Positions 11,501-35,483 of a stretch of 35,789 bases of DNA are shown one piece after another. Under the pieces are notes generated by a model, which was given only the letters and a program-made list of their open reading frames with translations, was not told where the DNA came from and did no database searches. The stretch is from Catajapyx aquilonaris. Its lineage: Eukaryota. How positions within the stretch are numbered: position 1 is the stretch's first letter; every line of letters starts with the position of its first letter. Both the position numbers and the translations under genes were made by a program. The stretch lies in the NCBI GenBank assembly GCA_000934665.2, contig KZ539038.1, positions 1-35,789 of the forward strand, read 5' to 3'.

Positions 11501-12918
11501 ACAGTAGCTGCAGTTGCGATAGGTGGCAGGAGCCAGCAGAGTGTTACGGCTGTGCAGAGAGATGAGGAGGTGGAGGAAGAAGAGGAGGAAGATATGGATG
11601 AAGAAGAGGAGGAGGAGGAGGAAGATGAGGAGGAGGAGGAGGAAGAAGAAGAGGAAGAGGATGACGAGGAGGAGGAGGTGCAAGTGTCAGCGGTGTCAGA
11701 ATCAGCAGTTCAGGAAAGGCCCTCTGTGTCACCTGAGACCCAGCCTTCTTCCATGCCTCCTGCACCTGTTGAGGTGGCGGCCCATCCAAAGCCGCCAGTG
11801 CCACCACCGCAGCAGCAGCATCCCCTTCCCCCCCACCCACAGCATTCCCATCATCCTCCACACCACTTGCACATGCAGCCGCCACCTCAAATGCAACCCC
11901 CACAGATTGTCCAGGTGCCTCTCCAACGGATGCCTGGTCAGCACTCCCAAATTCCCCCACAGCTGGCAATGCAGCATATGGCTATGCATCACATACAGCA
12001 GCATCAGCATCAGCAACAGCAGCAGCAGCATCAGCAGCATCAGCAACAGCAACAACAACAGCAAAGGCTGCCTATGCATCATCAACATCAAGGAGGGCCC
12101 CCCCCACATTCAGGGGGACACCCACTTCAACCCCAACACCAGCAAATGGGGCACCCAGGGCACTTGTCTCTGTCTCATCATGTGGGCCAACCTCACCCTG
12201 GACAAGCCCCAGGGCAGGCCATGGGTCCACGCCATCCTATGCTGCCCCCTCGCCCCCTGCTTGAGCTGGAGGTGCACAAACCGCCAGGCATGAAGGATGT
12301 ACCTCCTGGTCGGATGATGCACGAACAGCATGGTCCTCCTCCACACCAGCGCCAGCAGCAGCAGCAACAGCACCACCATCACCAGCAAATGCAACGACAT
12401 CATCCACCTCAAATGCAGCTTGGCAAGCCACCCATGCCGATGATGTCTCAGCAGCAGCCACCCCCGATGCCAACCCTGCCCTCACAGGGCCCACCTGGCA
12501 AGCCTGATCAACGCTACTTCCAATTGGAGGATCGGAATGTGCCAGGGGTTCCCAGGCCGGGGCCTGCCCCACCTGCTGGTGCCACCAATAAGATGCAGCC
12601 TCCTCTTCTTCCAGGCCCTGTGCCAGTAGGGATGACACCCACCCCGCCCCAGACCCAAGCTCCCCCACCACAACCTCAGGCTGCTCCTCCTCCTCCTGCC
12701 CCAGTCCCAGTCCCAGCCCCAGCCCCTGCCCTTGCCCCTGCCCCTGTGCCAGCCCCTGCCCCTGCCCCTGCCCCTCCCCTTGCCCCTGCCCCTCCCCAGC
12801 TGTCTGCACCAGCTCCAGAAAAGAAGATACAACACCCACTACTACCTCTTCCAACCCCAGTCATGGCCCCAGCGGTTGTGTCTGCTCCTGTGCCTGCTGC
12901 CCCTCCAGCTGCTCCAGT

Positions 12919-12950
<32 letters not shown>

Positions 12951-14966
12951 CACCAGCACAACCAGCACAAGCTCCGCCGATGGTTACTGCACCACCAGTT
13001 GCTGCCCCTGCTGCAGCTAAGGAAGAACCTGAGGCTCCACTGCCGGTTGAGGCAGCGAAAAAGGTGGACGAGCCCCAGCAGAATGGGGAGGTCACTAGTC
13101 CAGAAGGCACTGAAGGTAGGATGCGTTGGCATTTAAGCTTTCCTGACACTGTCAATTTCCCCACCAATTCTGGCAGAAATTTGTTGCAAAGTAGCAATGG
13201 AAGTGATCTTTTCACATTTTAGGCAGCGGCTTGAGGACAAGTTACCACTTAATATTCTCAAGGTCGAATTTTATGCCTAATGTTATGTGACAGAGTTATG
13301 TAACATCAGAGTGATTTGGAATGGAAGTCTACCTTGAAAATATGAGATTACTGTGATGTGGGATGGGAGCAGTGCAGAGCATGCTAATTTATCCATTGCA
13401 GTAGGGAAGTTGGTCACACTGTCAATTGCGTGCTGGTAGGTTAGGGGCTGCTATTCAGTATTTTAATTTCCAGATGGGGTTGTCTAGGACCAGGGTGTTT
13501 GCATTATTCCCAGTGCATGCCAATAGGAAAAAGAGCCCAGAGGCCGATTGGGCAAAATTAGAGGTTGCATCATTTCTGCCTCTGCGGTTTCGTTTGTCAC
13601 TGTTCGTTTGTCACTGCCCGTGATAGTGGGCCTCTGATCAAGTGAAGGGTGCGGAAGGGTGTGACTCTTGTTGTGTAGTAAGCCAGTGTGCTTGGGGAAT
13701 GGAAGGCCTCTCCTGTGGAGTAAGATGCATCTGGTGGCCACTCTCTAGACTGGCTGGCTGGGTGTAGCTGGAAGGCAGGGTGGCTCACCCCAGTAACCCT
13801 GGCTGAGGGTCAAGGCTGCCTCTCCTGGGGCCCTCATGGGTATCGCCTTCTGCATTCTTGGCTGGGGAGACCAGCAATTTTTACAATTTCTTATGCGGTT
13901 ATTTCACTTTCATATGCATTGGGGCCAGTAATAAGGAAGTTGATACAGTAGCACCTCCAGTAGGCCGTTAGGAACGGGGTAATTTCAGTGTGGTTTTGAG
14001 AATGTTACAAAAATGAGGCTTGCGGAATTTATTCATTAGGAGTTTTTCATCCAGGTTGTCACTTTTGCTGTAGAATGTTTGCATTCCTGTGCGAAAAGGA
14101 CTGAGTTAAAAAATTACTTTTGGGCCGTTACTCCAATGCATAAAAGTGCATCAGCCTGTTGTGTAAAACTATGGTTTTGTAATGCCTTTTGTACTTAGTA
14201 AAGTAATTACACATACACCGTGGCAACAAACTGTTACATTAGGTACAAGTACATCAGAAATCATATCAGCAGAATAGAAAAACAGATGATTGTTAGGGTA
14301 ATCTAGCACACATATCGGCATTAGCAGTTACTGAAGTGGCTGATAATTCTCTGTTGACATGAATTGCACATTGTGCTCTGGGCTCATTATTATGAGCCAT
14401 GCAGCGCATAATGGTTGCACTCTCGATTGGCCACAGTGATCATATTGATGTAAACTCTCATTAGGGGTTTGACGGCTGCTGAACATGGACAGGATGGGGA
14501 GGTGGGTGGTGTGGTGGAGAATTTATTATTCGAATCATGGTGAATAATTGGGGTCAACAGGATGAGGGGTGTAATATTATAACAGTGCATCATATGCAGT
14601 AAAGGCTGTAAAGTTGGAGTATACCAGAAAGGGGTTAAGGGGGGAGATGGGACAGTCTGTGGGTGGGTGGGGGGGTTTGTACTTATCACAGCTGGATGGA
14701 TAAAATGCCCATGGATCGAGTAGAGGTAAAGGTCGCGCCGAAGCCGATAAATACCAGTCTGGTTCAAGGCAACCATCCGAGGAGGATATGAATTATTGTG
14801 CAGTGAGTACAGCCGAGGGTTTGAATTCTTGGACTTGTAAAGTGTGCTTGTGGCTCACAGGAAGCGGCTATTATGCGGCTGTATGCCAGCTGCTTAGATC
14901 TCTCTTCAAAGCAGAATGGGCTCTTTGGTTATATAGTAGCCAGGAAAAATAACTGTTGCACCACAC

Positions 14967-15011
<45 letters not shown>

Positions 15012-18000
15012 ACCTTGGAGGAACTGCTTTCCAATCTGCCTGAGATTAGTGCACTTGATCAGATCTGCCCCGGTGGGGATTTGGTGCTTGGTGCACGTGC
15101 TTTTTGCCATGGCGATTATTCGGGGCGCGGTGGAAATATCTAGAGCGGGTTATTGCGACAGAGGAGTTGTACCGTGTGTTTCAGAATTTAGCTTACGGCC
15201 GTATCGGTAATAATTTGGCGCATACTGAAATGGCCTTTAATTATTTTAAAAAAATTTACTGTAAAATGACTGCAGGTGAAGCTAGCACGGTATATACGGT
15301 TGTCAGTCATTGATGTGGCAGTGAAAGTTCGTCCCGTTTGACGCATCTGTTGTCCATAACCGCCGGGAAAGGTCTTGGAGGAATTTGGAAAGGGAATGCA
15401 ATCCCCCCCCCCCCCCCCCCCCCCCNNNNNNNNNNNNNNNNNNNNNNNNNNNNNNNNNNNNNNNNNNNNNNNNNNNNNNNNNNNAACCCCCCCCCCCCCC
15501 CCCCCGGCTGGGCAAGGTTGTGAAAGTAGGGTGTTTTCGAAGAAGGGGGGGTCAGGTTTTGAGAGATTTTTACAGCCCCCTCCTTGAGCTTGAAGAAGGA
15601 AGTACCGCCAGTGGAGTCCACTTTTACAATTCCTGTTCCGCAAGAACGGACCCGCGATTATGGGAGAGACGTACTTTGGGGGGAGTGAAGGACGTTTGCT
15701 ATATGCCCTTGTTGGGGCTGCATGAATGGTATGGACAATGCGATATTTCAAAAAAAAAAAAAGAAGAGGTGAATGGATGCCCCCTCGTCATAGCACCGGG
15801 AGCAGATCTATTTTTAGTTAGACTGATCCGCTGGGCAGCGGAACTGTTCACGTCCTGACTGATTTGCTGGCAACGTCCGGCAACCTTTTATCGGCGGATT
15901 ACGGGGCTCGTAATATTCCTCGGAAGACGGTACATGCGAACATGCCCGAATTTAAGCACCGACATTTTAGTAGTTAGCAGACGATTTTCCCCCCCCTCCC
16001 GTTGGCGTAATTAATGGCAGCCCGAGCGATAACATTTCACATCCCATCTTCTCTACCGAAACGACCTTTTCTCGGGAGATGCCAGAGTGGGTGGTGGTGG
16101 TGTATGGGAGGAGGGATGCTTGCGCAAGGTTGCGACAGATGGACCCTCACTGTATGGTATCTTATTCTGCGCGTCATTCCCGCTGCAAAAAACCGGCCGT
16201 CCGAGAGATGACCACGTGACTTGCACCTGGCAACTCCGCCCCCGTTATCCACGTGGGCATGCATGCAAGGGAAGGACGACCCGCTCCTTTTTTTTTTATT
16301 TAAATTATTTGTAATGTACGGGGCGCCCGTCTTTTTAAAAATAAAACCGGCTCGGTTTGAGGCGCCACCTCCCTAAGACGATGTGAATGGAGAGAGATGG
16401 AGAGGGTTCGGGATGCTGGGAAGAGAGGGCGCCTGTACGACTCCCACGGTGGAGCCATGTTGTGTCCTTAGATGCTTCTGGTTGAGGAAAGAGGAGTGAC
16501 CATGGCGGGACTGTGTTGAGGTGTGCTCAGGAAACATGGACCCGGGTCCGAGCGGGGGGCAGAGGGCCCAGATGGGCCGGACGGTCAATGGGAAAGGTGA
16601 GGATTTGCAAAATTGGGGTTGGAGAGAGATGGGGAGGGATGTGGAGGATATATGGTGGGGTGTGGAATGGGAGGGGGGGGAAGTTCAGATGGGGTGGTGA
16701 ACCTGGCCTTAAATGGCATGGGATAGGTTGTCACATGACGTGATGCTGGGGGTTAGAGGCCAGTGTGATGGACTGGATCCATATGCATGAAATGACCTGT
16801 TGAATGCAGGGCTCTCTCTCCCCCCTTTTTTTTGAGGGCATGGCTTTTTTCCTCGCCTTCTAAAGGGGGGGATACCTCTTGATGGGGGGCGCTAGAGAAA
16901 GGAGTTGCCCGAGTGCAAGTTGGGAGCTAAAAATACTGTGCCTTGAGACAAGGTCTATTTTTGATGGTGGAGAGGCTTGGGGGGGCCCCAGTGGCAGGCT
17001 TTGCAAGCAGAGGATATCCTGTGCACATATTGGATAGATGAGATGCTATTGCAGTGCATGCCAATAATGGCATGGGAAGTGGGACAGGAGGCGATTGTCT
17101 GAACTGTCTTGAGGACAAGTAAAAAAATGTTCAAGACTAAAAAAAAGCGTGATGTTTTCCATATCAGAATCCTTTCAGCATTGAGAAAAGGAAACATTTT
17201 GGATTTAATATGCTCATTAAATTATTAACTTTTTACCAACTGAAGCTCAGCCACTTGATTTAAGATACGACTAGGATACCTCAATTAAAAATACCTAATG
17301 GGAAGGGAGAGGTTATGCCACATAATAATTGTTTACAAGTGAAATGATGTTGCAATAAGGTGGCATTGTAATGAAGCAGTGCTGATGCTGAAATGTGACA
17401 GGTGGCATGAATAATTAATGATGTCTCTTGTGCTGTTGCGTGGCATGCGCCAGCTGTTTAGTCTTGCAACCTGGTGAGGCCCAGGAGGCATTTGCATTTG
17501 AACTGGGATATGTAGATAAGTCTTCGACCCTGAATGCACTTCTCTTATTCTTGGGTTGGGTGTCTGTCCTCTTACAGTGAAGGCTTCCCAGCGGCAAAAG
17601 CCAAAACGCAGCCAGAAGAATCGGGAGTTGAATAGGAAAGGCGCTGAGAGGGAAGGGTCGGAACTGGATGCGTTCTATGACCCAACGGAAATGACCCCTC
17701 CTGTTCAGCAGCCAGTGGCTCCTGCCTCAGTTGCAGGGAAGGTGGCACCCCCTCCTCCTCCGCCCAACTCCACCTCTGCCCAGCAGCCGGCAAATTCTGC
17801 CCCTGTGGAGGATGAGGTTAACTCAAAGGAAAGTGGGGATGAAGAGGACCACCACCGCGTCGCTGTTCGTAATGAGGAGAATGCAGCCAAAGGTAGCCAA
17901 GTAGCAGAGGAAACTTCCGTTGAAGAGAAGAGTAGTAGTGCTGTGATAGATACCACTGCCCCTGCAGTCAAACCTGTCACGCAGCTGAAGCACAGCTATG

Positions 18001-21000
18001 ACGATGGTGAGTGTTGGCTTCCATTTAATTAGATTTCTTGGCAGAGCTAGGATGGTCCAAAATATTGGGTTGCTCGGAAAAGAGAGTCTAAATTCTAAAA
18101 CTTGGGAGCACTAACCTATTTGTAGTTATGAACTACATTCATATAGGAAGTCCTTGGTTTATGAACGAGCTAACTTATGGGGATCTGTATTTATGATCCT
18201 TTGCATGTATCCTTTGCAACTGGTGTAGCTGTTGTGACATTTCTTCTTGCATAATTTTAAAAGTTTATGACTGAATCAGTTATGTAGATTAATACTTTGC
18301 ACTACCATGTGTGGGAACCGAGTCATATGAATTGATTTACTCACATCGTCAGATTTAATGTTTATTAAACTAATCTATAATATACCGTTACGAGTGGAAC
18401 CTTGGGATCAACAAGAAAACAAATACTTCCGATATTAGTGATAACTAAAGATGACCCATGAACTTGAAACACCCTATATGTCAGTGAGTTTTGTTTTTCA
18501 TCCTCACATGATTGTTATGAGTCTCTTTTGATGTCAGCCACTATAACCCACTACAAATGATTTCTGATTTGTTGTGACAATATTATTGCAGTAGGAGGTT
18601 ACCTGTCATTATAAAACTGTTGTACATTTGCAGACCAGTGGAGCCCGGTGAACCCAGATGGAAAGAAGAAGTATGGAAGAGACTTCCTGCTGGAACTTCA
18701 GCATGATCCCCAATCCAAAAAGAAGCCTGAAAATCTTCCGACACTAGACATTATTTTAGACAGTACAAACAAGGTAGGACTACCTTCGTTAGCCTTATCA
18801 TTGCTCTAGATGTGTGCTAGGTGTGATTGCAGGTTTATGACATGATCATTCCCTCCACTAAAAAAGCACAAAGAATTGCTACTTATGTCTCGTTACGAGT
18901 GTTCTCACATGACGTACCAAATTCCTGAAAACTTTGTTCAACTTCTTTACATGCTTTCTGGAGATAAGATGGGACTGAACAGAAAAATACAGACAGGCTT
19001 TGAACTATTGCTTGGCAGTACTGTAATGGGTTTGAAAATGGTAAGAAGGGCACGACATCCTTGTTTCTGCTTTTTCGAACCTTCGAAACCATACCGTTTT
19101 GTGATTGGGAATATAATTTGGTCAGATATTTTTGTGCATTATTGGCTACCCTTCTGATTTATATTGTGTACCTTGGAGTTTGTTTATTTATTCCACCCTC
19201 CCCGCCCCCACCTCTTTCCATCTTGCGCTGAATGCTTGTGTGTGGATGTTTATTGATTCTTGTATTGTTGAGAGAAGTGGTGACATTTTATATTTAATTT
19301 GGTAAGATTGCCTTGGATTGCAACCTCGATGGATTCAGTGATTGTGGTTGAAGGGACACCATTTCAAAGAGACCCATGCTGCATTAACGTGATTGTAAGG
19401 CAGAGACGGTGTACATGTAGAGATCGGTTGTTCTATTGCATTGACGACGTGAACTGGGAGTGGGTTGCACATTTATTGCAAGGAAGAAAATTGCCTGCAT
19501 TTGACAGTAACGTCAAAAGGCCTTACGTCTAGTTGATGTAGCACCTCATGAGGTAGTTTCTGTCATTAACTTTGTGTTTTTTCCAATTGTGCTGATGGAT
19601 GAAATATTCCACGTTGCTTTTTTCAGCCAAGGGTACCTGAGACAAGGCCCTTGAACATGACTGCAAAGAGCTTTGCTGACTTTACTCCAAACTATGCAAA
19701 GTCCCCTGCACCTCGGGTGAGTTAGTTGGACTTGGTCTAAAGAGTTGGAATGTGAATGGGCAAGAATAACGGAGAATGTTTTCTGCAGATGCTTCCAAAG
19801 AGGAACAGCCAGCAAGGAAGGGTGAAGGCTCCCAAAGTGCTGCCCAGTCTCAGCTTGCAACTGAAGCAGGAAGTAAAACTTCATGAGGCTGAGAATGCAT
19901 GGAAACCTAACCTGAAGATAACTGTAAGCAAAAAGGAGCTGACCGAAGATGAGACCAAGTCAGAGGTAATGATGGTGACTGAAGGGGTGAAGAGTTTTTG
20001 TTTCCTGTGCATGAGTTATAACTTGGGATTTTTTGTGCAGGAGCTGTACAAGAAGGTTCGGGGCATCTTGAACAAGCTGACTCCTCAGATGTTTGAAATT
20101 CTGGTGGGCCAGGTGCAGGAGCTGCCCATTGACAACCAAGAAAGACTGAAAGGAGTCATGGAGCTTGTGTTCGAAAAGGTACTGTGTCTATCATAACGTA
20201 GTTGCAGGATATGGTTTGACAACAAAGGATTGTCACATTCCTGTCGGGGTCTAGGGCCTATTGGCCCGGTCGACCCTTGAAGTCCCCATGTAATGTCACA
20301 TTCCTGCCCCATTTGTGAATGTGAATGTCAATATCGAGAAGGCCACACTTGTATTTGTATGGATGGCTGTCAATAGGGGATACAGGTTATAAACTAGATT
20401 ATTGTGTGATACTGGTAAGGGGTAGGACTTGGGAAGACCGGGCTTTTAACGGGCTTCGAAAAATTGGTACACATCACTTGCCAGCACTGTATCCGCAGGA
20501 CCTTATGCCATAGCATCAGGAGTAATAATTTTTAAAAAAAGTAAAGAATTGCACCATTATGCCTTTTGGTAATTTATTAGTAAGACTTATCTGACTTGTT
20601 TAATTTTTCTAGGCGCTGGATGAACCAGGCTTCTCTGTGGCATATGCCAAGATGTGCAAGACCCTGGCCATGATGCAAGTGCCAGTAGATGAAGGCAGAA
20701 ATGAGTGTGTGAACTTCCGCAAGTTGCTGCTTCTCCGGTGCCAGAATGAGTTTGAGAAGGACTGGACAGATGAGCTGCGCAGCTTGAGGACCAAGGAAAT
20801 AGAGGCCACTCCCTCGGAGGAGAAGCGCAAAGAGATGCAGGTGGCACTTGATGAAGAGGAGCGTCGCCTTCGGAAGCGTTCTCTGGGCAACATTCGCTTC
20901 ATTGGAGAACTGTACAAGCTGGGCATGCTGACCTCCAAGATCATGCACGAGTGCCTGCAAAAACTTATACGTCAGGGGGATGAAGATTCTCTAGAGTGCC

Positions 21001-24000
21001 TCTGTCGCCTTCTGGCAACCATTGGGCGGGAAATGGAGAGTGAGATTGTGCAAAAGTCTAAGAACTCGGGCTCCAAGGAGGACATGGGACATTATTTTGC
21101 CCAGATGCTGGCCATCGTCCAAAAGCGGACCACCTCCAGTCGGGTGCGGTTCATGCTGCAGGATGTGATTGAATTGCGCAGCTGTAATTGGGTGCCACGT
21201 CGAGATGATAACAACCCCAAGACCATCGACCAGATCCATAAGGAGGCAGAGCGGGAAGCTATTGAACAGACTATTTCACTGCAGCAGGCACCTCCACCTA
21301 TGCGGGGAAGGGGTGGAGGCGGTGGGGGAATGGACGACAAGAAGAGGAAGGGTGGGATGCCTATGGGAGGAGGTGGCCCTGGCATGGGGGAGGATGGCTG
21401 GAACACAGCAGGGAAACCCGTCAGTACCAGGATATCTGGGATGGACTTCAGCAAACTGACCAAGCATGCCCTGAAGGTCAGTCACGATGTTTGTCTTTTC
21501 TCGTGTGGGGCACTCTTTAAGTACAATAGTACCAATTTTGTGCCGCATTATTCAGTTTTTAGGTCTATCTGTTGATGATAACACTTGCAGCTCAGGAATG
21601 CTCCTTAAGTGACGGTTGAGGCATTCAGACAGTCAGTTTTCGTTTCTTGTCACACTGGGGTGTTGTAAGTCAATCAACACAACCTCCACTCAACACCACT
21701 GCATGCATTCCTTAGGCACTGTCCACCTCCACCACCACATGACCATATCCTCTGGTGCATTGAACAGGTTCCAGCCCTGCAAACTGTCAGAAAGGGTGTG
21801 GAATTTGACTTGACCAAAGCTGACGGGCAGTCCATTTGTTATCATGAAAAGTACTGCTTGGACAAAGGAACGAAAACGGGCTGGGTAGAAAGGGATGGAT
21901 GCTCTTAAATGTGTCATACTGCTCAGGAGCAGCTAGCCACTTCAAGTTCTTTCTTTCTTCTTTTTTTCCCCCTTCTTTTTTTTTTCATTTTTTTCTCATT
22001 TTTTTTCCTTTGCATATGTGGGTGGTCATTTTACATTGGATTAAACACGGTCTTACAACATGTAGCAGTAGTTGCGTGCAAGCAGTGATGATAATTTTAC
22101 TTGCAGAACTCTTATAAAGAGCTACTGTTTTGTGGTCATCAGGGTTCCATATACACACATGTTAAAATTACAAAAAGTGATAGTATTCCTTCAATGCAAA
22201 TGCACCACACCATGGGTAAGAGGAAAGTACATATGTGGTATTGTACAATCAGCGTTGCAAACTGAGAAAAAACATTCTGCTAAAGCAACGTTAAAATCCA
22301 CTAAATGATTTTCCTTTGCCTTACATCACTCAGAAACCACAAAATTCATATACTTTCAAGATAAAAGTAACTCGCAATAATGAGGTACTACATGGAAGCT
22401 TCGTGGGAATCGATGAAGGTTGATATATCAGAATATAGATTCCTGCGATGTGCTGATGCGGGGTTAAATCTTTTTCATCGAAACCATTGTTCTAACTCTG
22501 CCATTCCCAAAAATGTGGAAACAGTGAGAGGCTGGCTTTCAGGAAAGGATACACTACACACTCCTAACAATTTTGTGACGCTAATGTCTGTTGATTCATC
22601 TATAATGACACTGGAATGTCAGTCCTTCTTAGACTGGCCTTGAAGTGTGAGGAAAGAATTATCTTAATTACACCACTACACTTGGTTACTTGCAAAGGCA
22701 TCTGAGAAGCTTGGTCAACACCTGTAATGCGTCTTTTTGAGAGACCACAAAGGTGATCCACATGTCTTATCACACAATGATTAGCCACAAACAAACATCA
22801 TGCAGCTTCTGCAGCTGCACCTTCATTTGCATGCCTTGCTATAATTATGCAAGTCTCACTTGGAGTGCTGTTGTGAGGAAAAGGGTCCTGCAGCTTTTAG
22901 AGATGCTTTTTGCTTGTTGAATGGGTGAGTAAAGGACGCAATTTTAAAGTGGTCTGGCTATATCTACAGTGTGAACTTGCCAAATCAGTGGGTACCTCAA
23001 CCATCCAGTCTTTCAATAATTCGTTGGTGAGCCACTCCTTCCTAAATATTTGGTATACCTTTTGTCTCTTTCCATCAAAAATTACTGATGGCCTTACATA
23101 AATCCATTAAAAATTTTGATGACCACTGAACAAAACATTTTCCCCATTGACATGGCATAAAATCTGTCTGAAATTATGCGAAGTTGGCAACACTTAGAAT
23201 ACGTTCGGTACCGGGGGGAAATCCCTCTCACACAACTAGGGTGTGAGAGGGACAGTCCTCCTCCAGCCAATTGTACAGTACCTCCGCAACCCATCACTCT
23301 ACTTTCTTCCTCCTACTACACCTATTTCCAGCTCCAGAACAAAGGCAGTCCACCTAGAGAGTCCAGTGAGCAGGACGTGGTGGTGACTAGTCATTCCTAG
23401 TTATAAGAGATGTGAAGTTCAGAGTGCGTCACATGAAATCAGCACATTTTCTAGTGATTGTGCTGCCCTGGTTGAATCGATGGATCAAATTTGAATGCTG
23501 TCTTTTATATTGCAGCTAAATCTTTGAATTTTTAGAGTTGTAGGGGGAACTTAGGTTCAGATTTTTAGATTCAAGGGGTTGCATTGTTCAGTTTTTTTTT
23601 TGACGTATACGTTGGAGGGAAGGTTGAAAGACACAAAATGGTAAGACAGTTTTTTCCAGACCTGCGAGCAATGCATAGAAATACATGCATTAACTGATGT
23701 GCCGTGTAAACATTTCAAAAATGTAACTAAAATGCAACTTAACAAGTTGGTTCCCTGGAGATTTCTTATGGAAAGAATACTCACTGGTGGGTAATTGTAG
23801 ATACGGTAGGGAGAGAGTGAAGTTGGGATGGGCCAATTGCTTGTGAGTAGGATGAAGCTCTTTAATGCCTCCATTCTTATAATTTCATGTAGCTGTTGCC
23901 AAATGACGCTGCTGATGTTGATAAGGTTGGCACAATCATTTGGCTGAATTTCAGTTTCTTAATTTTTTTCTTATTAATATTTGGAAGGTTCTGCAGGTGT

Positions 24001-27000
24001 GATATTCAACACTAATTCACCATTTTTTTTTCTTTTACACCTCACACCAATACCACAGTTGGAGCCAGAAAATATTCAACTGGGACCTGGTGGCCGTGTG
24101 GGCTCTTGGATGAAGGGCAGTCAGCTTGGCAGCAAACAACTGGCCTCCCAAGACCAGATGGAACAGAAGCCTTCAGGAATTGGATTGGGAAGTGGAATGA
24201 CAATGAGTGGAGGAAGTGCGAGTGTTGGAGGTGGCAGTGCCCCCACCAACCGCTTCCTGGCACTGGGTGGGGACTCTGGGCCTCCTCCTTTTGCTTCTTC
24301 GAGAGGGAGCAACAGGACACCTCCCCCACCGTCTGGCAGGGACCAGAGAGGTGGAATGGGTGGTCGAGATGGGAAGCAAGCCTCTTCTGCTGCCATGCCG
24401 GCCATGGACAAGGGGAAGGAAAATGCCCTGGCGGCAGTGCGATATATCACAGGTGGGTTCCCTCGTGAATTAGAATTATTTAGTCTTTACACTAGCTCAG
24501 ATCAAACTCGGTGAAGCAAATCCTGGTGGATTGCCCTTGTTATTAATTGTTGACAAAGACTAACTACAGTAGGTAACATTTGGCCTACCCAGATTTGTTT
24601 GACAGAGTTTGGTGTCCCAGTCATTAGGAATTATTGTAAACCACAGTGTTTTTGTCACACTAACAATGACGATGTCCCTCCTCTTCCCATCCCAAAAGCA
24701 CGCTTGGCAATAGACGGAAGTGAAAATGGTATGGGAAAATTTGTGACTCAGCATGGGCAGTTTGATCAGTGTATATTAATGCATTTTTCTCTTTGGAGTA
24801 GGGGATTCTGGCAAATCCCGCAGCCAGCAGTCGTCCCGTGAGAGTTCAGTAGCCCACGAGGAGCGTCCTCCCTCATCGACGGATCACCGGGAGCCCCGCC
24901 AGGGCAGTGGGGCTACTCCCCCAGCCTCCACACCTCCTGCTGCCCCGGTGGCAGCATCCTCCATGCTCAAGGGCTCTCCTAACCTGACTCAAGATGAGAT
25001 TTCCCACAAATCCAAGGCGCTCCTGGATGAGCTCTTCAGTGGGGATGACTTTGAGGAGGCAGTCACGTGTGTGACGGAACAGTTCCATCCCACAACTGTG
25101 GAAACCTTTGTGTTAGAGTCGCTCAACCATGTTCTTGGGAGGTCTCCCAAGTCCAGGGCCACGTGCGGGGCCCTCTTCCGCAACCTAGTCAGGCAGGGAG
25201 TCTTGCACCAGTCACAGTATATAGCAGGGTGAGTCACTGGCTCCTCACGCCTTGATTTTAGGTATCTGAATGTTGTCTTTGGTGCAGAGCAGAACAATGC
25301 AAGTTAATACCTCCAACAATGACGCAGAGACAAATGTGAAAGTTTGCTTCTTTCTTGCATGGGATTCCGAAACTTCGCTTACTAGTATACGTGCGAGTGA
25401 GTCCTTACCATCAGCTTTTTTTTTCCATTATGTTGCAAAGTAAATTATTGGTAGAATCTACTGTAATAGGCAGACACTCGAACCATGGAGAAAAGCTCTG
25501 TAATAATAATAATAATAATAATAATAATCCGGGTAGTGCTTGACCTCATCAGAGGTATAGAGCACGAACCTTTATTTATGTCTCGTACATATATTGGAAC
25601 CTTTATACGTAACGCCCAGGCCCACTGGCAGGATGACAGGAGGGGATGTGCAAGGTGCAGTGCGATGTCTTATACGTGGCCATTTTTAGTGAACTCCCTC
25701 GGGTGGTTTAGTCTGTGGAAATACCACCCGAGACGAAGCCAGAGGTGACCCTGAACTTTGCCTGAGGTGAAGGGGGTGTCCCCGGGTTGGGATCCAACCC
25801 GGGACCTTAACATCCGTGGGCGCGTACGTTACCGCAGCGCCACTTCGCCTCCCTGAGAAAAGCTCTGTATTGGGAACCTTTCCATTTGGGAAAAAGTTTA
25901 TTGGATCAGTAGATGTACTATATCTCTCAAAATCGTCTCTATGTTTTTGAGAGATATAGTACATGAGTGAACTGTGTTATAAAAAATCCTGCTTTCTTGT
26001 TTGAGGTAGTAGCAGATTGTGTATGGGCATACTCTTGCTTGTCTATTGGGATTAAATTGCACATGCAAACCAGCAGCTGTGGCTGAGAGAAATGTGCTAA
26101 GCGTTGAACAGGTTTCTAAGTGAAATCACTCTGTAGTCTATACCTTGCATGTTTTCTGTACCAAAATATATTGAAATGCCTCTCCTGGAATATGAATTTT
26201 GGAATATGAAACAGAGAGGCTTCATTCCATATGCATGCAGGATGTGTTGATAATTAGGTGGGGAAAAACAGTGTGATGTGTTAATTGGTTCCTTTTTCTA
26301 TTTCAGAGTTAAAAGTATATTAGAATTTGCAGAGGACCTCGTGATAGACTTTCCCAAGTTTTGGGAGTACATGGCAGAAATAATAAGTAAGTGGATCGTT
26401 GCATTTGTGTTTTTCTTGTTCTGGTAAGAGATGACATGCTTGCAGGCACATAACATTTTCCCCCTTCCGCCCCTTTGCAGGTCCAATACTCGAGGATGAT
26501 ACTGCGAATTTCCATTTTCTGCGAGAAGTAGCTCAACCTTTGAGGGAGATTAACCTTGCAGGGAAGATGGTAGCTGCAGTCATGCGCTGCATTGCCAATT
26601 CCAAGGCAAGTAACTTTCTAAAAGCATTTTGAAAGTTTAATCATTTCAGTACTTGAAATGTTGACTTGGACTGCATTAATTTTGAATGTACAGTCATTGC
26701 TGTAGTATTAGGTGTGATAGTTACCTGACAGGCAAATATCAGTGGGGCCTTGTATGATATTCTTGTACAATCTCTAATTGTGATTTTGGGATTAACTTGT
26801 GTGTATACACACGTAATTTTTAAATACGGGGTTCAACCACTGGCTTTTCATGATTTGACATGGATTGGCATAAAGTGGTGAATAAGTGCCTCATAGCATA
26901 GTGCTAATGTATTGTACTCTGAATATGATAACAGTCTGTTGACAGTTTGCCACACATAGTTTAGTTCATGAAGGGAACTCTTCTTAATTACCACCAGGGT

Positions 27001-28872
27001 CCCAAGAAGGTCAGTGAACTCTGGCGTTCAGCTGGCCTCAAATGGACAGTTTTTGTCGCAGAGGGAGAAGTTTCCCAGTTTGTCTCCCAGAATCAGTTGG
27101 AGTATGTGACTGGGGATGGCCCTGCCCTTCCTTCCTCACCTGGAATCTCGATGCCTGCCGTCAAGGCAAAGCTGGACGAGATGCTTCAGAAAGATGACCA
27201 CACTGATCACATCTTTGATTGGATAGATGTGAGTTTTGAAACTGCCCATTTTTCAACACACGAATCCGACAATTACATTGCATGGGTGAGCACAGTTGCA
27301 TTAAAACTGAAAACTTATTTTGATTGATTGACAAGACCAATTATGCTGCAGTGCATGAATGGATCTGTAGCTATAAAATCGTGTGAGAGCTGTCATTGCA
27401 GCTGTGCTCATTCTGCATACTCAAGTTGCTTTTGAGTGCAATGATGATGAGAAAATTGAACATACATTTGTGATGAGTTTCTCTAAAAGCTCAACAGGAC
27501 TGATTTGCACACTTGATAGATGTGAAACCCTCATCTAAAAGCCATGTCAGTGGTTTTTAATCAGTGGTTTACTTCTCAGGTGAATGTTGGTAACAAGACA
27601 AAGGATCCTCAGTTTGTACGTGCCTTGATGACGTCTGTCTGTGAACATATAATTAATGGTCAGTGTTCATATTCTTATGGCAAGTCTGTGAATGGGGGAG
27701 CATGTTGTGATTGTGTGGTCTTATTCTCTATTCAGCGCAAGCGCAGACCCCTGTAAGGGACAGGATGAAGCAGTACACAAACCTGCTGCAGCGGTACCTT
27801 GACCACAATGACCAGCTGGAGCTTCAGAGTCTGTATGCCCTTCAAGCCCTTATGCACAGGTTGCAGCCGCCAGCTGGTGAGTTTAAATTGTGTTTATTGC
27901 GTTGTTAATGTAAATTGTCATCATCCGAACAGTCGTGTTGTAATGAAAGGGAGCTATGATGGTTTATTTGGAAGAAGCCAAAGGAGCTATGATGACTTAT
28001 GGAAAGTTTTATTTGGCTGGAAATCAGCTGACCGGCAAATTTTTTTCCATAAATACGTAATATTGCAAGGATCTAGCTCCCCTTAGGACTCAAAAGTCCA
28101 ACATTTTAAATGGAATATGACTGTTTGCTGTGCAGAGAGACTCCTAAGACTGATTTTTTATACCTTCTTCTCAATCATTCGTATTTTAGCTGATAGAATG
28201 AGATCATACTGTAAGAGTTGACACGAGGTCTCAGATAAAGAAATTGCAGTAAAACCCCAATTATCTGTCACCCATGGGGACTGGGGCATTGTTGTATAAC
28301 AGAAAAGGTCGGATAATCCCAAGAGTAAAGGAAACACAACAAAAAGTGTAAAAAACCATGAAAGGTGTACAATATTACGCTTTTCTAAGAAATAGTGAAA
28401 TATTTATCATTTACGTACACACCACTGTTTAAAATTTAACTGAGGCAATACAAATGAAATGATTAGTAGGCCTGCATTACAGTATTTGATGAGAAAACAT
28501 GTTTATTGCTGGACCGGGACCCTCTGATGATAATCCGAGGTCGGTTAAACAGGGTTCCACTGTACTGGATAATTATGGGAATTAAAAACTAGAAAAGTGA
28601 GATTTTTCAAATGAAACTGGAGGAGGTACCTAGTTATTGTAAGATGAAGGTTAAGGACATTAACTGAATTTTTTATTCCTCCTTCAACAGGAGTTCTTGG
28701 CCAGATTTTTGAAGCCCTTTATGATGAGGAGGTAGTGTCGGAAGATGCCTTCAAACAGTGGGAGCAGAGCACTGATCCTGCCGAACAAGAAGGCAAGGGT
28801 GTTGCCCTCCTGTCAGTCACACAATTTTTCGTCTGGCTGAAGGAAACTGAAGAGGATGATGAGGACTCTTGA
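2529..28872 (+). CDS. eIF4G: Eukaryotic translation initiation factor 4 gamma (eIF4G1/3-like), spliced CDS of 20 exons (E2-E21), 2008 aa from ATG 2529
   Basis: Manually joined exons 2529-2582, 3311-3424, 9083-9169, 9488-9617, 10579-10814, 11207-13115, 17578-18006, 18634-18773, 19627-19716, 19789-19965, 20041-20178, 20613-21476, 24059-24452, 24802-25228, 26307-26386, 26481-26605, 26998-27228, 27580-27658, 27736-27876, 28691-28872. All phases are compatible and the total is 6027 nt. eIF4G motifs occur in the expected order: PABP site, YxxxxLL, MIF4G, MA3, W2. Confidence 0.95.
3311..3424 (+). CDS. eIF4G: eIF4G exon E3 ([20 protein letters not shown]...)
   Basis: Acceptor cccacgcag, donor CAG|GTAGTG, 38 codons, phase 0/0. 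P/Q-rich composition like eIF4G N-termini. Confidence 0.75.
4261..4528 (-). mobile_element. Second copy of the Helitron-like family
   Basis: Same CTAG/hairpin terminus in reverse, (GACA)n, and shared internal sequence with 1327-1613. Confidence 0.75.
5250..6345. mobile_element. Older fold-back element interrupted by the 5284-5968 MITE
   Basis: Long imperfect inverted repeat between ~6000-6120 and ~6180-6300. Outer matches at 5251-5278 and 6317-6343. Confidence 0.6.
5284..5968. mobile_element. pogo/Tigger-like MITE with long TIRs
   Basis: TA|CAGTACCCTGCATTAATGGCCATGCACAGACACCGCCA, with its inverse ending at 5968|TA. Confidence 0.9.
6770..6984. mobile_element. hAT-type MITE
   Basis: TIRs CAGTAGTTCCAACCT / AGGTTGGGAACCACTG with a perfect 8-bp TSD GAGTAGAC. 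Confidence 0.9.
7396..7465. repeat. AT-rich (TA)n-like microsatellite
   Basis: tatattatatatata arrays. Confidence 0.8.
9083..9169 (+). CDS. eIF4G: eIF4G exon E4 ([29 protein letters not shown])
   Basis: AG acceptor and GTGAGT donor, 29 codons. Confidence 0.8.
9488..9617 (+). CDS. eIF4G: eIF4G exon E5 ([21 protein letters not shown]...)
   Basis: Acceptor tgtttcag, donor GTGAGT, phase 0/1. Confidence 0.85.
10200..10411 (-). mobile_element. Degenerate tRNA-derived SINE
   Basis: Minus strand begins gggcacacagtggtctactg...gtcctttgttcaaaaccc, with decayed A/B boxes. Confidence 0.4.
10579..10814 (+). CDS. eIF4G: eIF4G exon E6, PABP-binding motif
   Basis: [25 protein letters not shown] resembles the human eIF4G1 PABP site [26 protein letters not shown]. 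Canonical splice sites. Confidence 0.92.
11207..13115 (+). CDS. eIF4G: eIF4G exon E7, 1909-nt low-complexity exon (acidic, Q/H/P/M-rich, PA repeats)
   Basis: 676-aa ORF. Acceptor ttgcag and donor G|GTAGGA, with phases matching E6 and E8. Confidence 0.9.
14967..15008. repeat. (CA)n(GA)n microsatellite
   Basis: Seen directly. Confidence 0.95.
15403..15505. other. Poly-C tract spanning an assembly gap (N at 15426-15484)
   Basis: Seen directly. Confidence 0.98.
17578..18006 (+). CDS. eIF4G: eIF4G exon E8
   Basis: [18 protein letters not shown] resembles the conserved KELNKKE..DLLDAF segment. Boundaries cttacag and GTGAGT. Confidence 0.92.
18634..18773 (+). CDS. eIF4G: eIF4G exon E9, eIF4E-binding motif YGRDFLL (18672-18692)
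   Basis: [23 protein letters not shown] contains the canonical YxxxxL-hydrophobic motif. This exon is too short to appear in the ORF track. Confidence 0.95.
19627..19716 (+). CDS. eIF4G: eIF4G exon E10 (DFTPNYA motif)
   Basis: 90 nt, boundaries tttcag and GTGAGT. DFTP motif conserved in eIF4G. Confidence 0.9.
19789..19965 (+). CDS. eIF4G: eIF4G exon E11 ([12 protein letters not shown])
   Basis: Conserved pre-MIF4G AWKP motif. Canonical splice sites. Confidence 0.93.
20041..20178 (+). CDS. eIF4G: eIF4G exon E12, start of MIF4G domain
   Basis: [18 protein letters not shown]...[11 protein letters not shown]. Confidence 0.96.
20613..21476 (+). CDS. eIF4G: eIF4G exon E13, rest of MIF4G domain and Gly-rich linker
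   Basis: [54 protein letters not shown]. Confidence 0.97.
24059..24452 (+). CDS. eIF4G: eIF4G exon E14, linker
   Basis: QLGPGG..SWMKGS and TNRFLAL match eIF4G linker motifs. Phase 0/1. Confidence 0.92.
24802..25228 (+). CDS. eIF4G: eIF4G exon E15, start of MA3 domain
   Basis: [24 protein letters not shown]. Phase 1/2. Confidence 0.92.
25503..25854 (-). mobile_element. tRNA-derived SINE with (TTA)n tail
   Basis: A box TGGCGCTGCGG and B-box-like GGTTGGATCCC on the minus strand, (TAA)n at 25501-25528, and a 15-bp TSD GAGAAAAGCTCTGTA (25488-25502, 25855-25869). Confidence 0.88.
26307..26386 (+). CDS. eIF4G: eIF4G exon E16 (MA3)
   Basis: [23 protein letters not shown]. Confidence 0.93.
26481..26605 (+). 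CDS. eIF4G: eIF4G exon E17, ends at a GC donor
   Basis: [21 protein letters not shown]... The frame is kept by AAG|GCAAGT. Confidence 0.88.
26998..27228 (+). CDS. eIF4G: eIF4G exon E18
   Basis: [16 protein letters not shown]...IFDWID. Confidence 0.93.
27436..27510 (+). ncRNA. Intronic box C/D snoRNA, predicted 28S rRNA 2'-O-methylation guide
   Basis: Box C ATGATGA at 27441, C' GTGATGA at 27470, box D CTGA at 27500, terminal stem GTGCAA/TTGCAC. Guide AAGCTCAACAGG (27487-27498) is complementary to conserved LSU CCUGUUGAGCUU. Ends about 70 nt before the 3' splice site. Confidence 0.85.
27580..27658 (+). CDS. eIF4G: eIF4G exon E19 (W2 region)
   Basis: [12 protein letters not shown]. Confidence 0.93.
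27736..27876 (+). CDS. eIF4G: eIF4G exon E20 (W2)
   Basis: [18 protein letters not shown]. Confidence 0.93.
28247..28562. mobile_element. Degenerate CAGT...ACTG (pogo-like) MITE
   Basis: cagtaaaacccc...gggttccactg|ta, with subterminal gataatcc motifs. Confidence 0.55.
28691..28872 (+). CDS. eIF4G: eIF4G terminal coding exon E21 (W2, Mnk-binding end)
   Basis: [18 protein letters not shown]...[26 protein letters not shown]. Confidence 0.96.
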
Positions 28873-30310: not shown

Positions 30311-30550
30311 AACACTTGTTACCTGTGTGCCTCTTTGGGAGTGTATGAGAGTTGTTCGTGAAATGCCCTTGGGATGGGAAAATTGGGATAGTTCCAATCA
30401 GGGCTTGTTGCCTTATTGCAGCCTGGACATCATTGAAGGCAAGTGGTATGAGGAGCACATGCCTCATAAGTCGTGTTGATAGGGGTGATGAAGGCCCCCT
30501 TTCTCCACCTCGATGGCCTACAGCTTCCTTGCGAATGCTTTCCGTCGTGT

Positions 30551-31590
30551 CCGCGGTTAATTCAAAGTGAAATTCCTCATATCTCGCAGTCAACCAGGCA
30601 TTTCAGTGTACCCTTTCGATTGGCACAACCCGGCCGCCCCGTTTTTCCCGCCAATTTTGAAGGCACTTTTAAATGTGCCGTAATTTATCCAGTAATGTCA
30701 TTTTGATGCAACAGAGTGATGGAATGTATGTTTACGGGCATGGGCTAGCTAGTTATGAACAAAAATCCCAAATCCCAGGCCAAGGCTACTTCCCCATTAC
30801 CGCGCCTAGAAAAATTTAAAGTGACAAAGAGGCCATCACTCATGAACAGTCTTGATCACCGCATACATTTTGTTGGAAGTATTAGGCTCGTTTTCTCGAA
30901 CAGGGAACAGTGGTTCAAATCTAAACCCTGGTCAAGTCCGGTTTAATCCCAGTTCAGAGTCTTTTAGCTGGGATTAAACCCTCTGAACTGGGATTAAAGC
31001 ATAGCCTATACTTGAATCGGGTTTAGATTTGACCCACTGTTCGAGAAAAAGGGCATAATATTGCAAATGAAGGTGATGCAATCTTCCATCATACACCTTG
31101 GTAACGAGAATCTACCTGTATTACAGTATTTTTATCCTTGCAATACATTATTGTTGGCATCCCTGAGTCAGCAAATAGATTATCACGACAAGTCAGCATA
31201 ATATATGTTAGCCCTGACTCAGCGCAAGCTAAGCACACTTTATGAAATGTTGGGACGCCCTGCCCGGTGCAAAGCAGGTGCGGGGCATTGTGGGCGATTG
31301 CAGACCCTCCTGAGCCCACAATCCCACCACAATAATCCAGTCCCCACCTTATGCCAGCCCGCCATTCGCGCCCAGTAGCCCCTGTAAGAGCGTCGGCGCC
31401 CCGAAGAACCACAGCGGACACGCGAGCAATCACTCCGCGCAGGCAACCGGCGCGGCGCCACCTAACACCTCTATACACCCTTTTGGTTGGGAACCCCTGC
31501 TCTAAAGTGTGATGATTTTTACTCTCGCTGGCAGAACGCTGCTCACTCCCCTCCGCTAGCACCTCCGCAGGTTTGCGCGAGACTTCAAAG
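30551..31590 (+). promoter_or_regulatory. CpG-rich region with three E2F/CDE-N4-CHR composite motifs upstream of the duplicate
   Basis: CCGCGG-ttaa-TTCAAA (30551-30566), TTCCCGC-caat-TTTGAA (30645-30661), TTGCGCG-agac-TTCAAA (31573-31589). Confidence 0.45.
30885..31055. mobile_element. Short palindromic MITE (PIF/Harbinger-like)
   Basis: ttttctcgaacag..caaatctaaacc versus ggtttagatttg..ctgttcgagaaaa, with TTA/TAA flanks. Confidence 0.65.
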
Positions 31591-34303
31591 ATTTGGTAAG
31601 ATTGTCTAGGATTGCAAGCGCGATGGATTCGTTGATTGTGGTTGGAGGGACACCATTTCAAAGAGTGCCATGCTGCATTAACGTGATTGTAAGGCAGAGT
31701 CTGTGTACATGTAGAGATCATTTGTTCTATTGCATTGACAACGTGAACTGGGAGTGGGTTGCATATTTATTGCAAGGAAGAAAATTGCATGCATTTGACA
31801 GTAACGTCAAAAGGCCGTACGTCTAGTTGTTGTAGCAACTCGTGAGGTAGTTTCTGTCATTAACTTCGTGCTTTTTCACATTATGCTGATGGATGAAATA
31901 TTCCACGTTGCTTTTTTCAGCCAAGGGTACCTGAGACAAGACCCTTGAACATGACTACACTGAGGTTTGCTGACTTTACGCCAAACTCTGCAATGTCCCC
32001 TGCACCTCGGGTGAGTTAGTTGGACGTGGTCTAAACCAAGGTCTAAACTCTAAAGAGTTGGAATGTGAATGGCAAAGAATAACGGAGAATGTTTTCTGCA
32101 GATGCTTCCGAAGAGGAACAACCAGGAAGGAAGGGTGAAGGCTCCCAAAGTGCGGCCCAGCCCCAGCTTGCAACAGGAGGAGGAAGTAAAACTTCATGAG
32201 GCTGAGAATGCATGGAAACCTAACTTCAAGATAAGCATAAGCAAAAAGGAGCTGACCGAAAAAGAGACCATGTCAGAGGTAATGATGGTGACTCAAGGGG
32301 TGAAGAATTTTTGTTTCCTGTGCATGTTATAACTTGGGATTTTTGTGCAGGAGCTGTACAAGAAGGTTCGGGGCATCTTGAACAAGCTGACTCCTCAGAT
32401 GTTTGAAATTCTGGTGGGCCAGGTCCAGGAGCTGCCCATTGACAACCAAGAAAGACTGAAAGGAGTCATGGAGCTTGTGTTTGAACAAGTACTGTATCTA
32501 TCATTCATAACATACGGGTCATTCCCACATGCCACAAAATCTCGATCTTCAACCATGATTCTGAGGGGCAAAATCGGGATCGTTTGGTGACTGTTCCCAC
32601 CAGCCACGTACTTTTCACGATTTTCGGTAGATGGGTCTGGAAGCATGCCCTCCTGCCTGGCGAAAAAATGACTCGATTCGGCTCATGGCCAAACGCATGG
32701 GTGTCTCTACGATGGGCTTGGCTGTAATAGCAACGAGGCATGCTATCCATGTTATTGCACATGTCCTGGCTGCCCGCAGAGCGAGGGACCAGATGGGACC
32801 AAGCAGACAGCCGCCATGTTACTCGGCTAAGATCCGGTCTGGAGGGGGAGTGACATCAAGACCAAGACTGGAAACCTGGCAGCCAGCATCTACAAGCTGT
32901 TTCGCCGAATCACCTTTGTAAATCAAAATGCGTTCGGGTGGAGGGAGGGCATGTGGGAACAGCCCAAGATCGATTTTCGGGGGTATTAATCGAATCATGG
33001 TCCCTGTGGCATGTGGGAATGGCCCTGTTGGTGCAGAATTGGTTGGACAACAAAGGATTGTGTCACATTCCTGCCCCTTTTGTGAATGTCAGTGTCAGTA
33101 TCGAGAAGGCCGCACTTGTGCCTATGAGGTTCTGTCATTAGGGGATGCAGGTCATGAGCTGGCTTCTTGTATAATACTGGTAAGAGGCAGTACTTCAGAA
33201 GATGCATATATTCAAGGTGGTGGCTTTACTGGATTTTTAAAAAATTTATCTTTTGGATATATCCACTAATCACTTGCCAGCAATGTCTGCAGGATCTTAT
33301 GTCATAGACAGCAGATCTAATTTCTTCAAAAAGTAAAGAATTGCACCAATGGCTTTTGATAATTAATTAGTAACACTTTTGTAACTTTATGTTGAATAAA
33401 TTTTTATAGGCGCTTCATGATCCAGCCTTCTCTGTGGCATATGCCAAGATGTGCAAGACCATGGCCATGATCCAAGTGCCAGTAGATGAAGGCAGAAATA
33501 AGTGTGTGAACTTCCGCAGGTTGCTGCTTCTCCGCTGCCAGAATGAGTTTGAGAAGGACTGGACAGACGAGCTGCGCAGCTTGAGAACCAAGGAAATAGA
33601 ACCCACTCCCTCGGAGGAGAAGCGCAAAGAGATGCAGGTGGCACTTGATGAAGAGGAGCGTCGCCTTCGGAAGCGTTCTCTGGGCAACATTCGCTTCATT
33701 GGAGAACTGTACAAGCTGGGCATGCTGACCTCCAAGATCATACACGAGTGCCTGCAAAAACTTATACGTCAGGGGGATGAAGATTCTCTAGAGTGCCTCT
33801 CTCTTCTCCTGTCAACCATTGGGCGGGAAATGGAGAGGGAGATTGTGCAAAAGTCTAAGAACTCTGGCTCCAAGGAGGACATGGGACATTATTTTGCCCA
33901 GATGCAGGCCATAGTTCAGAAGCGGACCACCTCCAGTCGGGTGCGGTTCAAGCTGCAGGATGCCATTGAGTTGCGCAGCTGTAAATGGGTGCCACGTCAT
34001 GATGATATCAACCCCAAGACCATTGACCAGATCCATAAGGAGGCAGAGCGGGAAGCTATTGAACAGACTATTTCACTGCAGCAGGCACCTCCACCTATGC
34101 GGGGAAGGGGTGGAGGTGGTGGGGGAATGGAATACAAGAATAAGGGTGGGATGCCTATGGCAGGTGGCGACCCTGGCATGGGGGAGCATCCGTGGTTCGC
34201 AGCACAGAAGCCTGTCTATACCAGGATATGTGGCATGGATTTTAGCAAACTGACCAAGCATGCCCTGAAGGTCAGTCTCGATGTTTGTCTGATTTTCTCT
34301 CTG
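31591..34303 (+). repeat. Segmental tandem duplicate of 19297-~21507 (introns included)
   Basis: Colinear high similarity from atttggtaagattg onward in both exons and introns, ending about 30 nt after the E13 donor. Confidence 0.97.
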
Positions 34304-34306
34304 TAA
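31951..34306 (+). CDS. Partial eIF4G paralogue (MIF4G-only), ~423 aa if expressed; young gene or intact pseudogene
   Basis: Copies of E10-E13 at 31921-32010, 32102-32278, 32351-32488 and 33410-34270 with GT/AG sites retained. ATG at 31951, no internal stop or frameshift, read-through to TAA at 34304-34306. Confidence 0.6.
32516..33025. mobile_element. MITE in an intron of the duplicate, absent from the parental intron
   Basis: 21-bp TIR gggtcattcccacatgccaca / tgtggcatgtgggaatggccc (1 mismatch). The empty site is visible near 20195-20205. Confidence 0.85.
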
Positions 34307-34392
34307 TGTGTATCCAGCGTACACAGTTGTGCTGGAAAACATTCTAATTGTGTATTCAGTGTACACAAATTGTACACTTCCTCCTTCCTGTT

Positions 34393-35480: not shown

Positions 35481-35483
35481 ATA

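Follow-up and report, generated by a model that had tools for sequence, protein, structure and literature searches.

The closest described systems to the locus considered here, a partial duplicate of the eIF4G gene in a 35,789-nucleotide stretch of the genome of Catajapyx aquilonaris (GenBank assembly GCA_000934665.2, contig KZ539038.1, positions 1 to 35,789 of the forward strand; hereafter the window), are the unprocessed partial pseudogene, the eIF4G-derived protein eIF4G2 (also known as DAP5, p97, or NAT1), the core or middle fragment of eIF4G, and the eIF4G-like proteins with several MIF4G domains that are predicted in other animals. An unprocessed partial pseudogene keeps its introns, stands in tandem to its parent, is missing 5′ and 3′ portions of the gene together with any evident promoter, and accumulates changes regardless of conservation; promoter-less internal gene fragments of this kind are usually dead. 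DAP5, the product of a separate gene, is ancient and conserved; it begins close to the MIF4G domain, has no PABP and eIF4E sites, and retains the MA3 and W2 domains. The eIF4G middle fragment, obtained experimentally or as a product of viral proteases, consists of MIF4G and the adjacent linker without the N-terminal third of the protein, and can drive cap-independent initiation.

The Catajapyx copy is an unprocessed pseudogene in every respect save the absence of a disabling lesion: it retains introns, lies in tandem to the parent, has neither the 5′ nor the 3′ portion of the gene and no evident promoter, and has changed on its own side only, at conserved and variable sites alike. We favor, with a probability of roughly 0.55, the reading that it has no function and is an unprocessed partial pseudogene, a gene fragment so far free of stops and frameshifts. 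Its predicted product would resemble DAP5 in being derived from eIF4G, in starting near MIF4G, and in having no PABP and eIF4E sites; unlike DAP5, the copy is a recent local fragment that encodes only MIF4G and linker and shows no residue-level constraint. The product would also resemble the eIF4G core fragment in its extent, but such fragments have wild-type sequence, whereas motifs in the copy are altered (RFML to RFKL, CRLL to SLLL, DGWNT to HPWFA).

Duplicated MIF4G domains are found elsewhere. All 14 of the top-ranked long homologues that we examined (P0123-P0136, from bivalve, coral, crab, fishes, scorpion, jellyfish, and others; a biased sample, with multi-copy proteins ranking first) carry two to three full-length MIF4G copies that are 74-99.5% identical within the protein, comparable with the 92% seen here; in those proteins the copies lie within one predicted open reading frame (ORF), whereas the Catajapyx copy lies beyond the 3′ end of its parent. 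Lineage-specific MIF4G duplication in animal eIF4G thus seems either to be recurrent or to be often merged into one gene model, and since similar duplications occur in many animals, the duplication event itself is not unusual. Among the proteins of at least 163 amino acids that were searched in a large protein collection, the best relative of the copy is 50% identical (among proteins of similar length) and the best relative of the parent 63% identical (among longer proteins), and the collection holds no close outgroup to either. The full-text literature searches that we made returned no title or abstract treating such a partial eIF4G duplicate.

Extent and anatomy of the duplication

To judge from its spliced genes, its mean CpG observed/expected ratio of 0.45, and palindromes resembling miniature inverted-repeat transposable elements (MITEs), the window is animal nuclear DNA. 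A blastn search of positions 31001-34700 against the rest of the window returns two long matches, copy 31591-32504 to parent 19297-20194 (91.06% identity over 917 columns) and copy 33061-34299 to parent 20294-21502 (86.24% over 1250 columns), both with E=0; self-BLAST of the whole window reveals no other long repeat. Homology begins within parent intron 9 and ends about 25 nucleotides past the E13 donor, abruptly on both sides and within continuous sequence, which bears out the claim of a preliminary description of this DNA that only exons E10 to E13 were duplicated. Those labels are its own, unverified numbering. The exon pairs were set by GT/AG sites, reading frame, and tblastn with four eIF4G homologues, and by the same evidence the junctions that it had predicted for the copy (32010/32102, 32278/32351, and 32488/33410) are correct.

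The copy lies on the same strand as the parent. The conserved parts of the parent, as found by tblastn with the four homologues, span 10671 to 28842, and the gene ends in a TGA at 28870-28872; 3′ of this stop are AATAAA hexamers at 30002, 30084, 30091, and 30288, which likely mark parent 3′ ends. The copy begins about 2.7 kb 3′ of the parent stop and about 1.3 kb 3′ of the last of these hexamers. Set beside a parent that extends at least over 10671-28872, it has no promoter, start codon, or terminal exons from the original gene, and the YGRDFLL eIF4E-binding motif falls outside the copied segment, so that a product without an eIF4E site, as the preliminary description had it, is what the anatomy predicts. 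Capture of the fragment by a transposon is unsupported, as no inverted repeats bound the copy.

With parent-like splicing, the copy presents 422 aligned codons with 49 amino acid changes and one codon deletion, and neither a stop nor a frameshift, close to an earlier manual count of about 50 changes and one in-frame deletion. The changes are distributed over E11, E12, and the tail (13 differing columns in amino acids 341-423) as had been reported. The resulting ORF of 423 amino acids runs from an ATG at 31951, the first in-frame ATG of E10′ (primes denote exons of the copy), to a TAA at 34304-34306; an in-frame stop lies 5′ of the ATG in intron-derived sequence, and the last 11 codons are likewise intron-derived. 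The earlier estimate of about 423 residues therefore holds.

The product would still be recognizable as MIF4G. E13′ alone matches the Pfam MIF4G profile PF02854 with E=4e-36 and 125.1 bits (cut-off 30.8; profile positions 47-203 of 203), compared with 137.9 bits for the parent. Profile positions 1-48 come from E12 (parent ORF 19756-20196), whose counterpart in the copy, E12′, carries a single residue change. Against human eIF4G1 the copy scores 212 bits and the parent 245, a loss of 33 bits in the copy, and E13′ aligns to the DAP5 MIF4G structure 4iul_A with E=2.8e-22. Contacts with eIF4A include yeast N615 (DAP5 N86) and yeast K837 (DAP5 R295) (PMC10746786). The ILNKLT stretch of E12′ and the RVRF arginines of E13′ are kept, with a methionine to lysine change two residues past the second arginine; by our positional estimate from the 4iul alignment, the asparagine of ILNKLT would be the eIF4A-contacting asparagine of that source.

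Change in the copy and tests of constraint

Outgroups were taken from 104 matching homologues of at least 1000 amino acids, of which 99 span the region; 59 near-duplicates (with at least half of their 5-mers in common with a retained sequence) were removed and 40 kept. Among the 50 differing columns, the 25 that could be polarized with these 40 eIF4Gs all show the derived state in the copy and the outgroup state in the parent, the other 25 being ambiguous, and Tajima-type counts give more copy-unique than parent-unique changes for 39 of the 40 outgroups (for example 24:1). Within the MIF4G core (amino acids 90-340), the copy has changed at 8 of 102 conserved sites, defined as those where at least 80% of outgroups have the residue of the parent, and at 12 of the 149 others (Fisher p=1.0); the parent has replaced none of the 102. 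Changes fall on residues identical in human eIF4G1 (FEK to FEQ, ECLCRLL to ECLSLLL, RFMLQDV to RFKLQDA, WVPRR to WVPRH, and E to D in the EP motif), and in the linker that follows MIF4G DGWNT has become HPWFA. The substitutions at conserved MIF4G residues that the preliminary description had singled out (FEK to FEQ, LDEP to LHDP, CRLLA to SLLLS, and RFML to RFKL) are all present.

Pairwise, the ratio of nonsynonymous to synonymous substitution rates (dN/dS) is 0.50 raw and 0.48 after Jukes-Cantor correction (Nei-Gojobori: S=278.3, N=987.7, sd=32.5, nd=57.5). As it is the copy that has undergone the nonsynonymous changes, the ratio to be expected for its lineage is about 1.0 overall, about 0.66 for the core (not significantly under 1), 1.75 for E10-E11, and 1.16 for the tail; in this calculation the nonsynonymous changes were given to the copy and the synonymous changes, which could not be polarized with a collection containing no close outgroup, were split equally. 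Exons differ at 88 of 1266 positions (7.0%) and the well-aligned introns 9-11 and 13 at 32 of 506 (6.3%). BLOSUM62 scores average -0.11 for the 35 replacements that involve a single nucleotide, compared with -0.42 +/- 0.27 for random nonsynonymous, non-stop mutations of the parent (P=0.14), so that the replacements are no more conservative than chance would give. By four independent tests, i) polarization, ii) site classes, iii) dN/dS, and iv) the kind of replacement, the copy is without detectable purifying selection at the residue level.

Divergence between parent and copy is clustered. Identical runs of 139, 92, and 85 nucleotides (copy positions 33603-33741, 34025-34116, and 32340-32424), which include synonymous and intron positions, are set in surroundings that differ by 7-20%, an arrangement with a shuffling P of 0.0012 within E13; this suggests that the runs are gene-conversion tracts from the parent rather than the mark of selection on the copy. 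At the other extreme, two or three nucleotide changes are found in 14 of the 49 changed codons, and the tail is about 20% diverged, so that the mutation process appears clustered and heterogeneous. Divergence over the 3′ part of intron 12 amounts to 22%. Locally, divergence reaches about 20% at 34103-34250 and 33061-33400, compared with 3-9% elsewhere in the duplicate.

Signals, features, and surroundings of the copy

The preliminary description held that no splice site had been lost, which is true of the GT/AG dinucleotides but not of their context: the E12 donor, AAG/GTACTG in the parent, is CAA/GTACTG in the copy, and with this loss of the -1 G (G to A) the predicted duplex with U1 has an energy of -2.8 kcal/mol instead of -6.2, while no change is seen in the other three donors. 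As positions +4 to +6 of this donor do not match the consensus, loss of the -1 G leaves scant pairing with U1. Retention of intron 12 would bring a stop after 33 intron codons. The same intron contains an insert, accounting for the gap between the two blastn matches, that we call MITE-like because its ends are inverted repeats of 21 nucleotides (32516-32536 and 33005-33025, 95% complementary); this and 10 indels in the aligned introns agree with the intron indels and MITE insertion reported earlier. Taken as a whole, copy intron 12 (32486-33409) combines three private changes, namely loss of the donor -1 G, the MITE-like insert, and a new AATAAA. Parent intron 12 has also been altered since the duplication, as indicated by a piece of about 57 nucleotides (20245-20300) that is private to the parent and has the direct repeat GTCACATTCCTG on both sides.

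Between 30294 and the end of the window, the plus strand has no canonical poly(A) hexamer other than that new AATAAA, at 33395. The earlier remark that no clear AATAAA lies downstream is right for the sequence 3′ of E13′, where neither AATAAA nor ATTAAA occurs on the plus strand between 33401 and 35789 (1.5 kb past E13′), with the caveat of the hexamer inside the intron. At the other end of the copy, a CpG-rich stretch at the 5′ breakpoint could be either an island of promoter-like character or a young repeat. CpG-rich islands (observed/expected 0.9-1.25) are also present at 1-500 and at 15801-16400, the latter inside the parent gene.

Table 1. Coordinates of the parent eIF4G gene, the partial duplicate, and associated features in the window
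Feature	Position	Strand	Remarks
Parent eIF4G, homology-recognizable part	10671..28872	+	tblastn with P0147, P0144, P0146, P0154; Pfam MIF4G, MA3; W2-like C-terminus
Parent eIF4E-binding motif YGRDFLL	18633-18767	+	
Parent MIF4G	exons 20041-20178 + 20613-21476	+	
Parent MA3	about 24963-25229	+	Pfam, tblastn
Parent conserved C-terminal exon	28690-28872	+	tblastn
Copied parent segment	19297..21502	+	End of intron 9, E10, E11, E12, E13, about 25 nucleotides of intron 13; blastn, MAFFT pair alignment
Partial duplicate	31591..34299	+	86-91% DNA identity to parent; no N-run within or adjoining
E10, parent / copy	19627-19716 / 31921-32010	+	5/30 residues changed
E11, parent / copy	19789-19965 / 32102-32278	+	12/59 residues changed
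E12, parent / copy	20041-20178 / 32351-32488	+	MIF4G start; 1/46 residues changed
E13, parent / copy	20613-21476 / 33410-34270	+	Rest of MIF4G and Gly-rich linker; 31/287 residues changed, one codon deleted
E13′ donor AAG/GTCAGT kept, then 11 read-through codons and TAA	34271..34306	+	Duplication end
MITE-like insert in copy intron 12	32512..33029		About 520 nucleotides, absent from parent
AATAAA	33395..33400	+	About 10 nucleotides 5′ of E13′ acceptor; not at aligned parent position
CpG-rich stretch	31301..31700		Observed/expected 0.91-0.94 vs 0.45 for the window; adjoins 5′ breakpoint

The DNA around the copy looks like repeats, with palindromic MITE-like elements and a weak match to a Mos1 helix-turn-helix. 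Palindromic or inverted-repeat elements of MITE-like form, with arm identities of 70-81%, occur at 1660-2081, 5989-6308, 5282-5970, and 30873-31067. In nine ORFs around the copy nothing exceeds the Pfam cut-off, the best match being an ORF on the minus strand at 35188-35430 to the Mos1-transposase domain HTH_48 (E=0.031, under the cut-off); nor does anything exceed it in 15 ORFs elsewhere in the window. A tRNA-like stretch at 34890-34990 is not called by ARAGORN, which finds no tRNA. An Rfam search of 28000-35789 yields only hairpin matches at 35661-35768, far under the gathering scores, and corresponding to a hairpin with 34-nucleotide arms at 35676-35749.

Origin and fate of the copy

We envisage that a segmental duplication at the DNA level placed a copy of an eIF4G segment of about 2.2 kb, which begins within intron 9 and ends shortly after the E13 donor, in repeat-rich intergenic DNA, and that the fragment would have arrived without promoter, 5′ exons, or 3′ end. 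Thereafter the copy would have changed without constraint at the protein level while the parent stayed nearly fixed, and some tracts may have been re-homogenized by gene conversion from the parent. Were the copy transcribed, the weak E12 donor, the enlarged intron 12 with its AATAAA, and the want of a downstream poly(A) signal would argue against efficient production of the 423-residue protein. Our weighing began from a low prior for function because of the usual fate of promoter-less internal gene fragments; the open frame raised the odds of function, and they fell again with the lack of constraint on residues, the impaired E12 donor, and the absence of a 3′ signal.

Several observations speak against a simple decaying fragment. 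Unlike the usual pseudogene, the copy has neither stop nor frameshift after about 7% exon divergence, so that the customary hallmark is missing; its 422 codons are open, all seven GT/AG pairs required for a spliced product are kept, and the weakened E12′ donor is the sole lesion. In simulation, 50-70 random substitutions placed on the parent coding sequence leave no stop with a chance of 0.07-0.15. Exons have one indel (in-frame, 3 nucleotides) for 88 substitutions and the aligned introns 10 for 101 (Fisher p=0.025, or p=0.068 when the comparison is limited to introns 9-11 and 13), and at the intron indel ratio the chance of no frameshift is 0.004-0.024. Under strict neutrality the open frame is therefore improbable, with a joint chance of roughly 0.001-0.03, the upper end allowing for a probably lower indel rate in exons than in introns. 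All of these estimates condition on the differences that survive, and the deficit therefore persists even if gene conversion has occurred. Further, the dN/dS of the copy core, about 0.66, is under 1, though not significantly (P=0.17 against neutrality), and the preliminary description, which had looked to a ratio of about 1 across the MIF4G core as a sign of a dead copy, thus finds that value approached but not cleanly reached. The differences in E12 are one nonsynonymous and three synonymous. Finally, the CpG-rich stretch occupies the very position required of a promoter, and at 31596/31597, just inside the 5′ edge of the copied segment, is a donor close to consensus, TTTG/GTAAGA; splicing from there to E10′ could conceivably provide a short non-coding first exon, although this is speculation. 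The absence of residue-level constraint and the absence of frameshifts and stops are in conflict, and this is the only unusual point of the case.

These same observations make up much of the argument that the copy is a translated gene for a MIF4G-only protein of 423 residues, evolving fast under relaxed or diversifying selection, which we consider unlikely. The transcript would start in the CpG-rich stretch, perhaps with the non-coding first exon just described, and the product, without PABP, eIF4E, MA3, and W2 modules, would probably have altered contacts with eIF4A and eIF3. Its start would be the first AUG following an in-frame stop, E12′ with ILNKLT is nearly unchanged, and the open-frame, lineage-specific MIF4G duplicates among predicted eIF4G-like proteins of other animals are also in its favor. 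The 25:0 asymmetry, the failure to spare conserved sites, the absence of conservative bias, and the overall dN/dS of about 1 count against it, as do radical changes at residues shared with human (M to K in RFMLQD, C to S and R to L in ECLCRLL, and the HPWFA linker), the weakened E12 donor, the lack of a poly(A) hexamer downstream, and a C-terminus made by reading through into an intron. No matching protein is present in a collection of 5.8 billion sequences, where the best is 50% identical, a weak objection since the organism is seemingly absent there. The stronger proposal that selection has kept the frame, so that a young and rapidly diverging MIF4G-only protein, driven from the CpG-rich DNA at 31.3-31.6 kb, has through its altered eIF4A, eIF3, and linker surfaces a regulatory or decoy role in initiation, strikes us as slightly more doubtful again, and roles for the product as an eIF4A decoy, a cap-independent factor, or a protease decoy are hypothetical. 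Where the preliminary description held a mini-eIF4G and a young pseudogene to be equally likely, the anatomy that it noted stands and the open frame is improbable by chance, but the constraint tests tip the balance to a pseudogene, and we regard the mini-eIF4G as disfavored.

Use of the copied exons only within other transcripts appears less probable still. They might be reached by read-through of eIF4G, parent E9 being spliced to E10′ to give a C-terminally truncated isoform with a variant MIF4G, or be part of a non-coding RNA or one targeted by nonsense-mediated decay; the position of the copy on the parent strand 2.7 kb downstream, the parent acceptor and phase retained by E10′, and the kept E13′ donor, with which downstream splicing would be possible, are compatible with such transcripts. 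Four AATAAA hexamers (30002-30288) stand between the parent stop and the copy, however, and the truncated isoform would still require a working variant MIF4G, against which the constraint tests argue. Least probable is an assembly artefact in which a divergent haplotype or distant paralogue was misjoined 3′ of eIF4G. The sole N-run of the window, at 15426-15484, is far from the copy, homology stops abruptly on both sides inside continuous sequence, and the divergence of 7-22%, the private MITE-like insert, and the several indels are unlike alleles. Four DNA sequencing runs contain 0.88-0.90 of the sampled words of the stretch, so that the diverged sequence is present in reads; the runs come from one sample and are not independent, and they may be the source sample of the assembly itself. 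A fifth run, of unspecified kind, contains 0.11 of the words and counts neither way, and no RNA run was among the five that the search for sequencing runs returned.

If the copy is, as we favor, a decaying relic, it would be an ordinary by-product of segmental duplication and a caution for annotation, since gene-prediction programs may label it a "MIF4G domain protein" or merge it with eIF4G. If instead selection has kept the frame, the recurrent open-frame MIF4G duplicates in other animals would hint at a repeated evolutionary route. A frame that is both maintained and expressed would be a new gene born from an internal gene fragment, and a natural experiment on what the eIF4G core does in vivo without eIF4E, PABP, MA3, and W2 modules.

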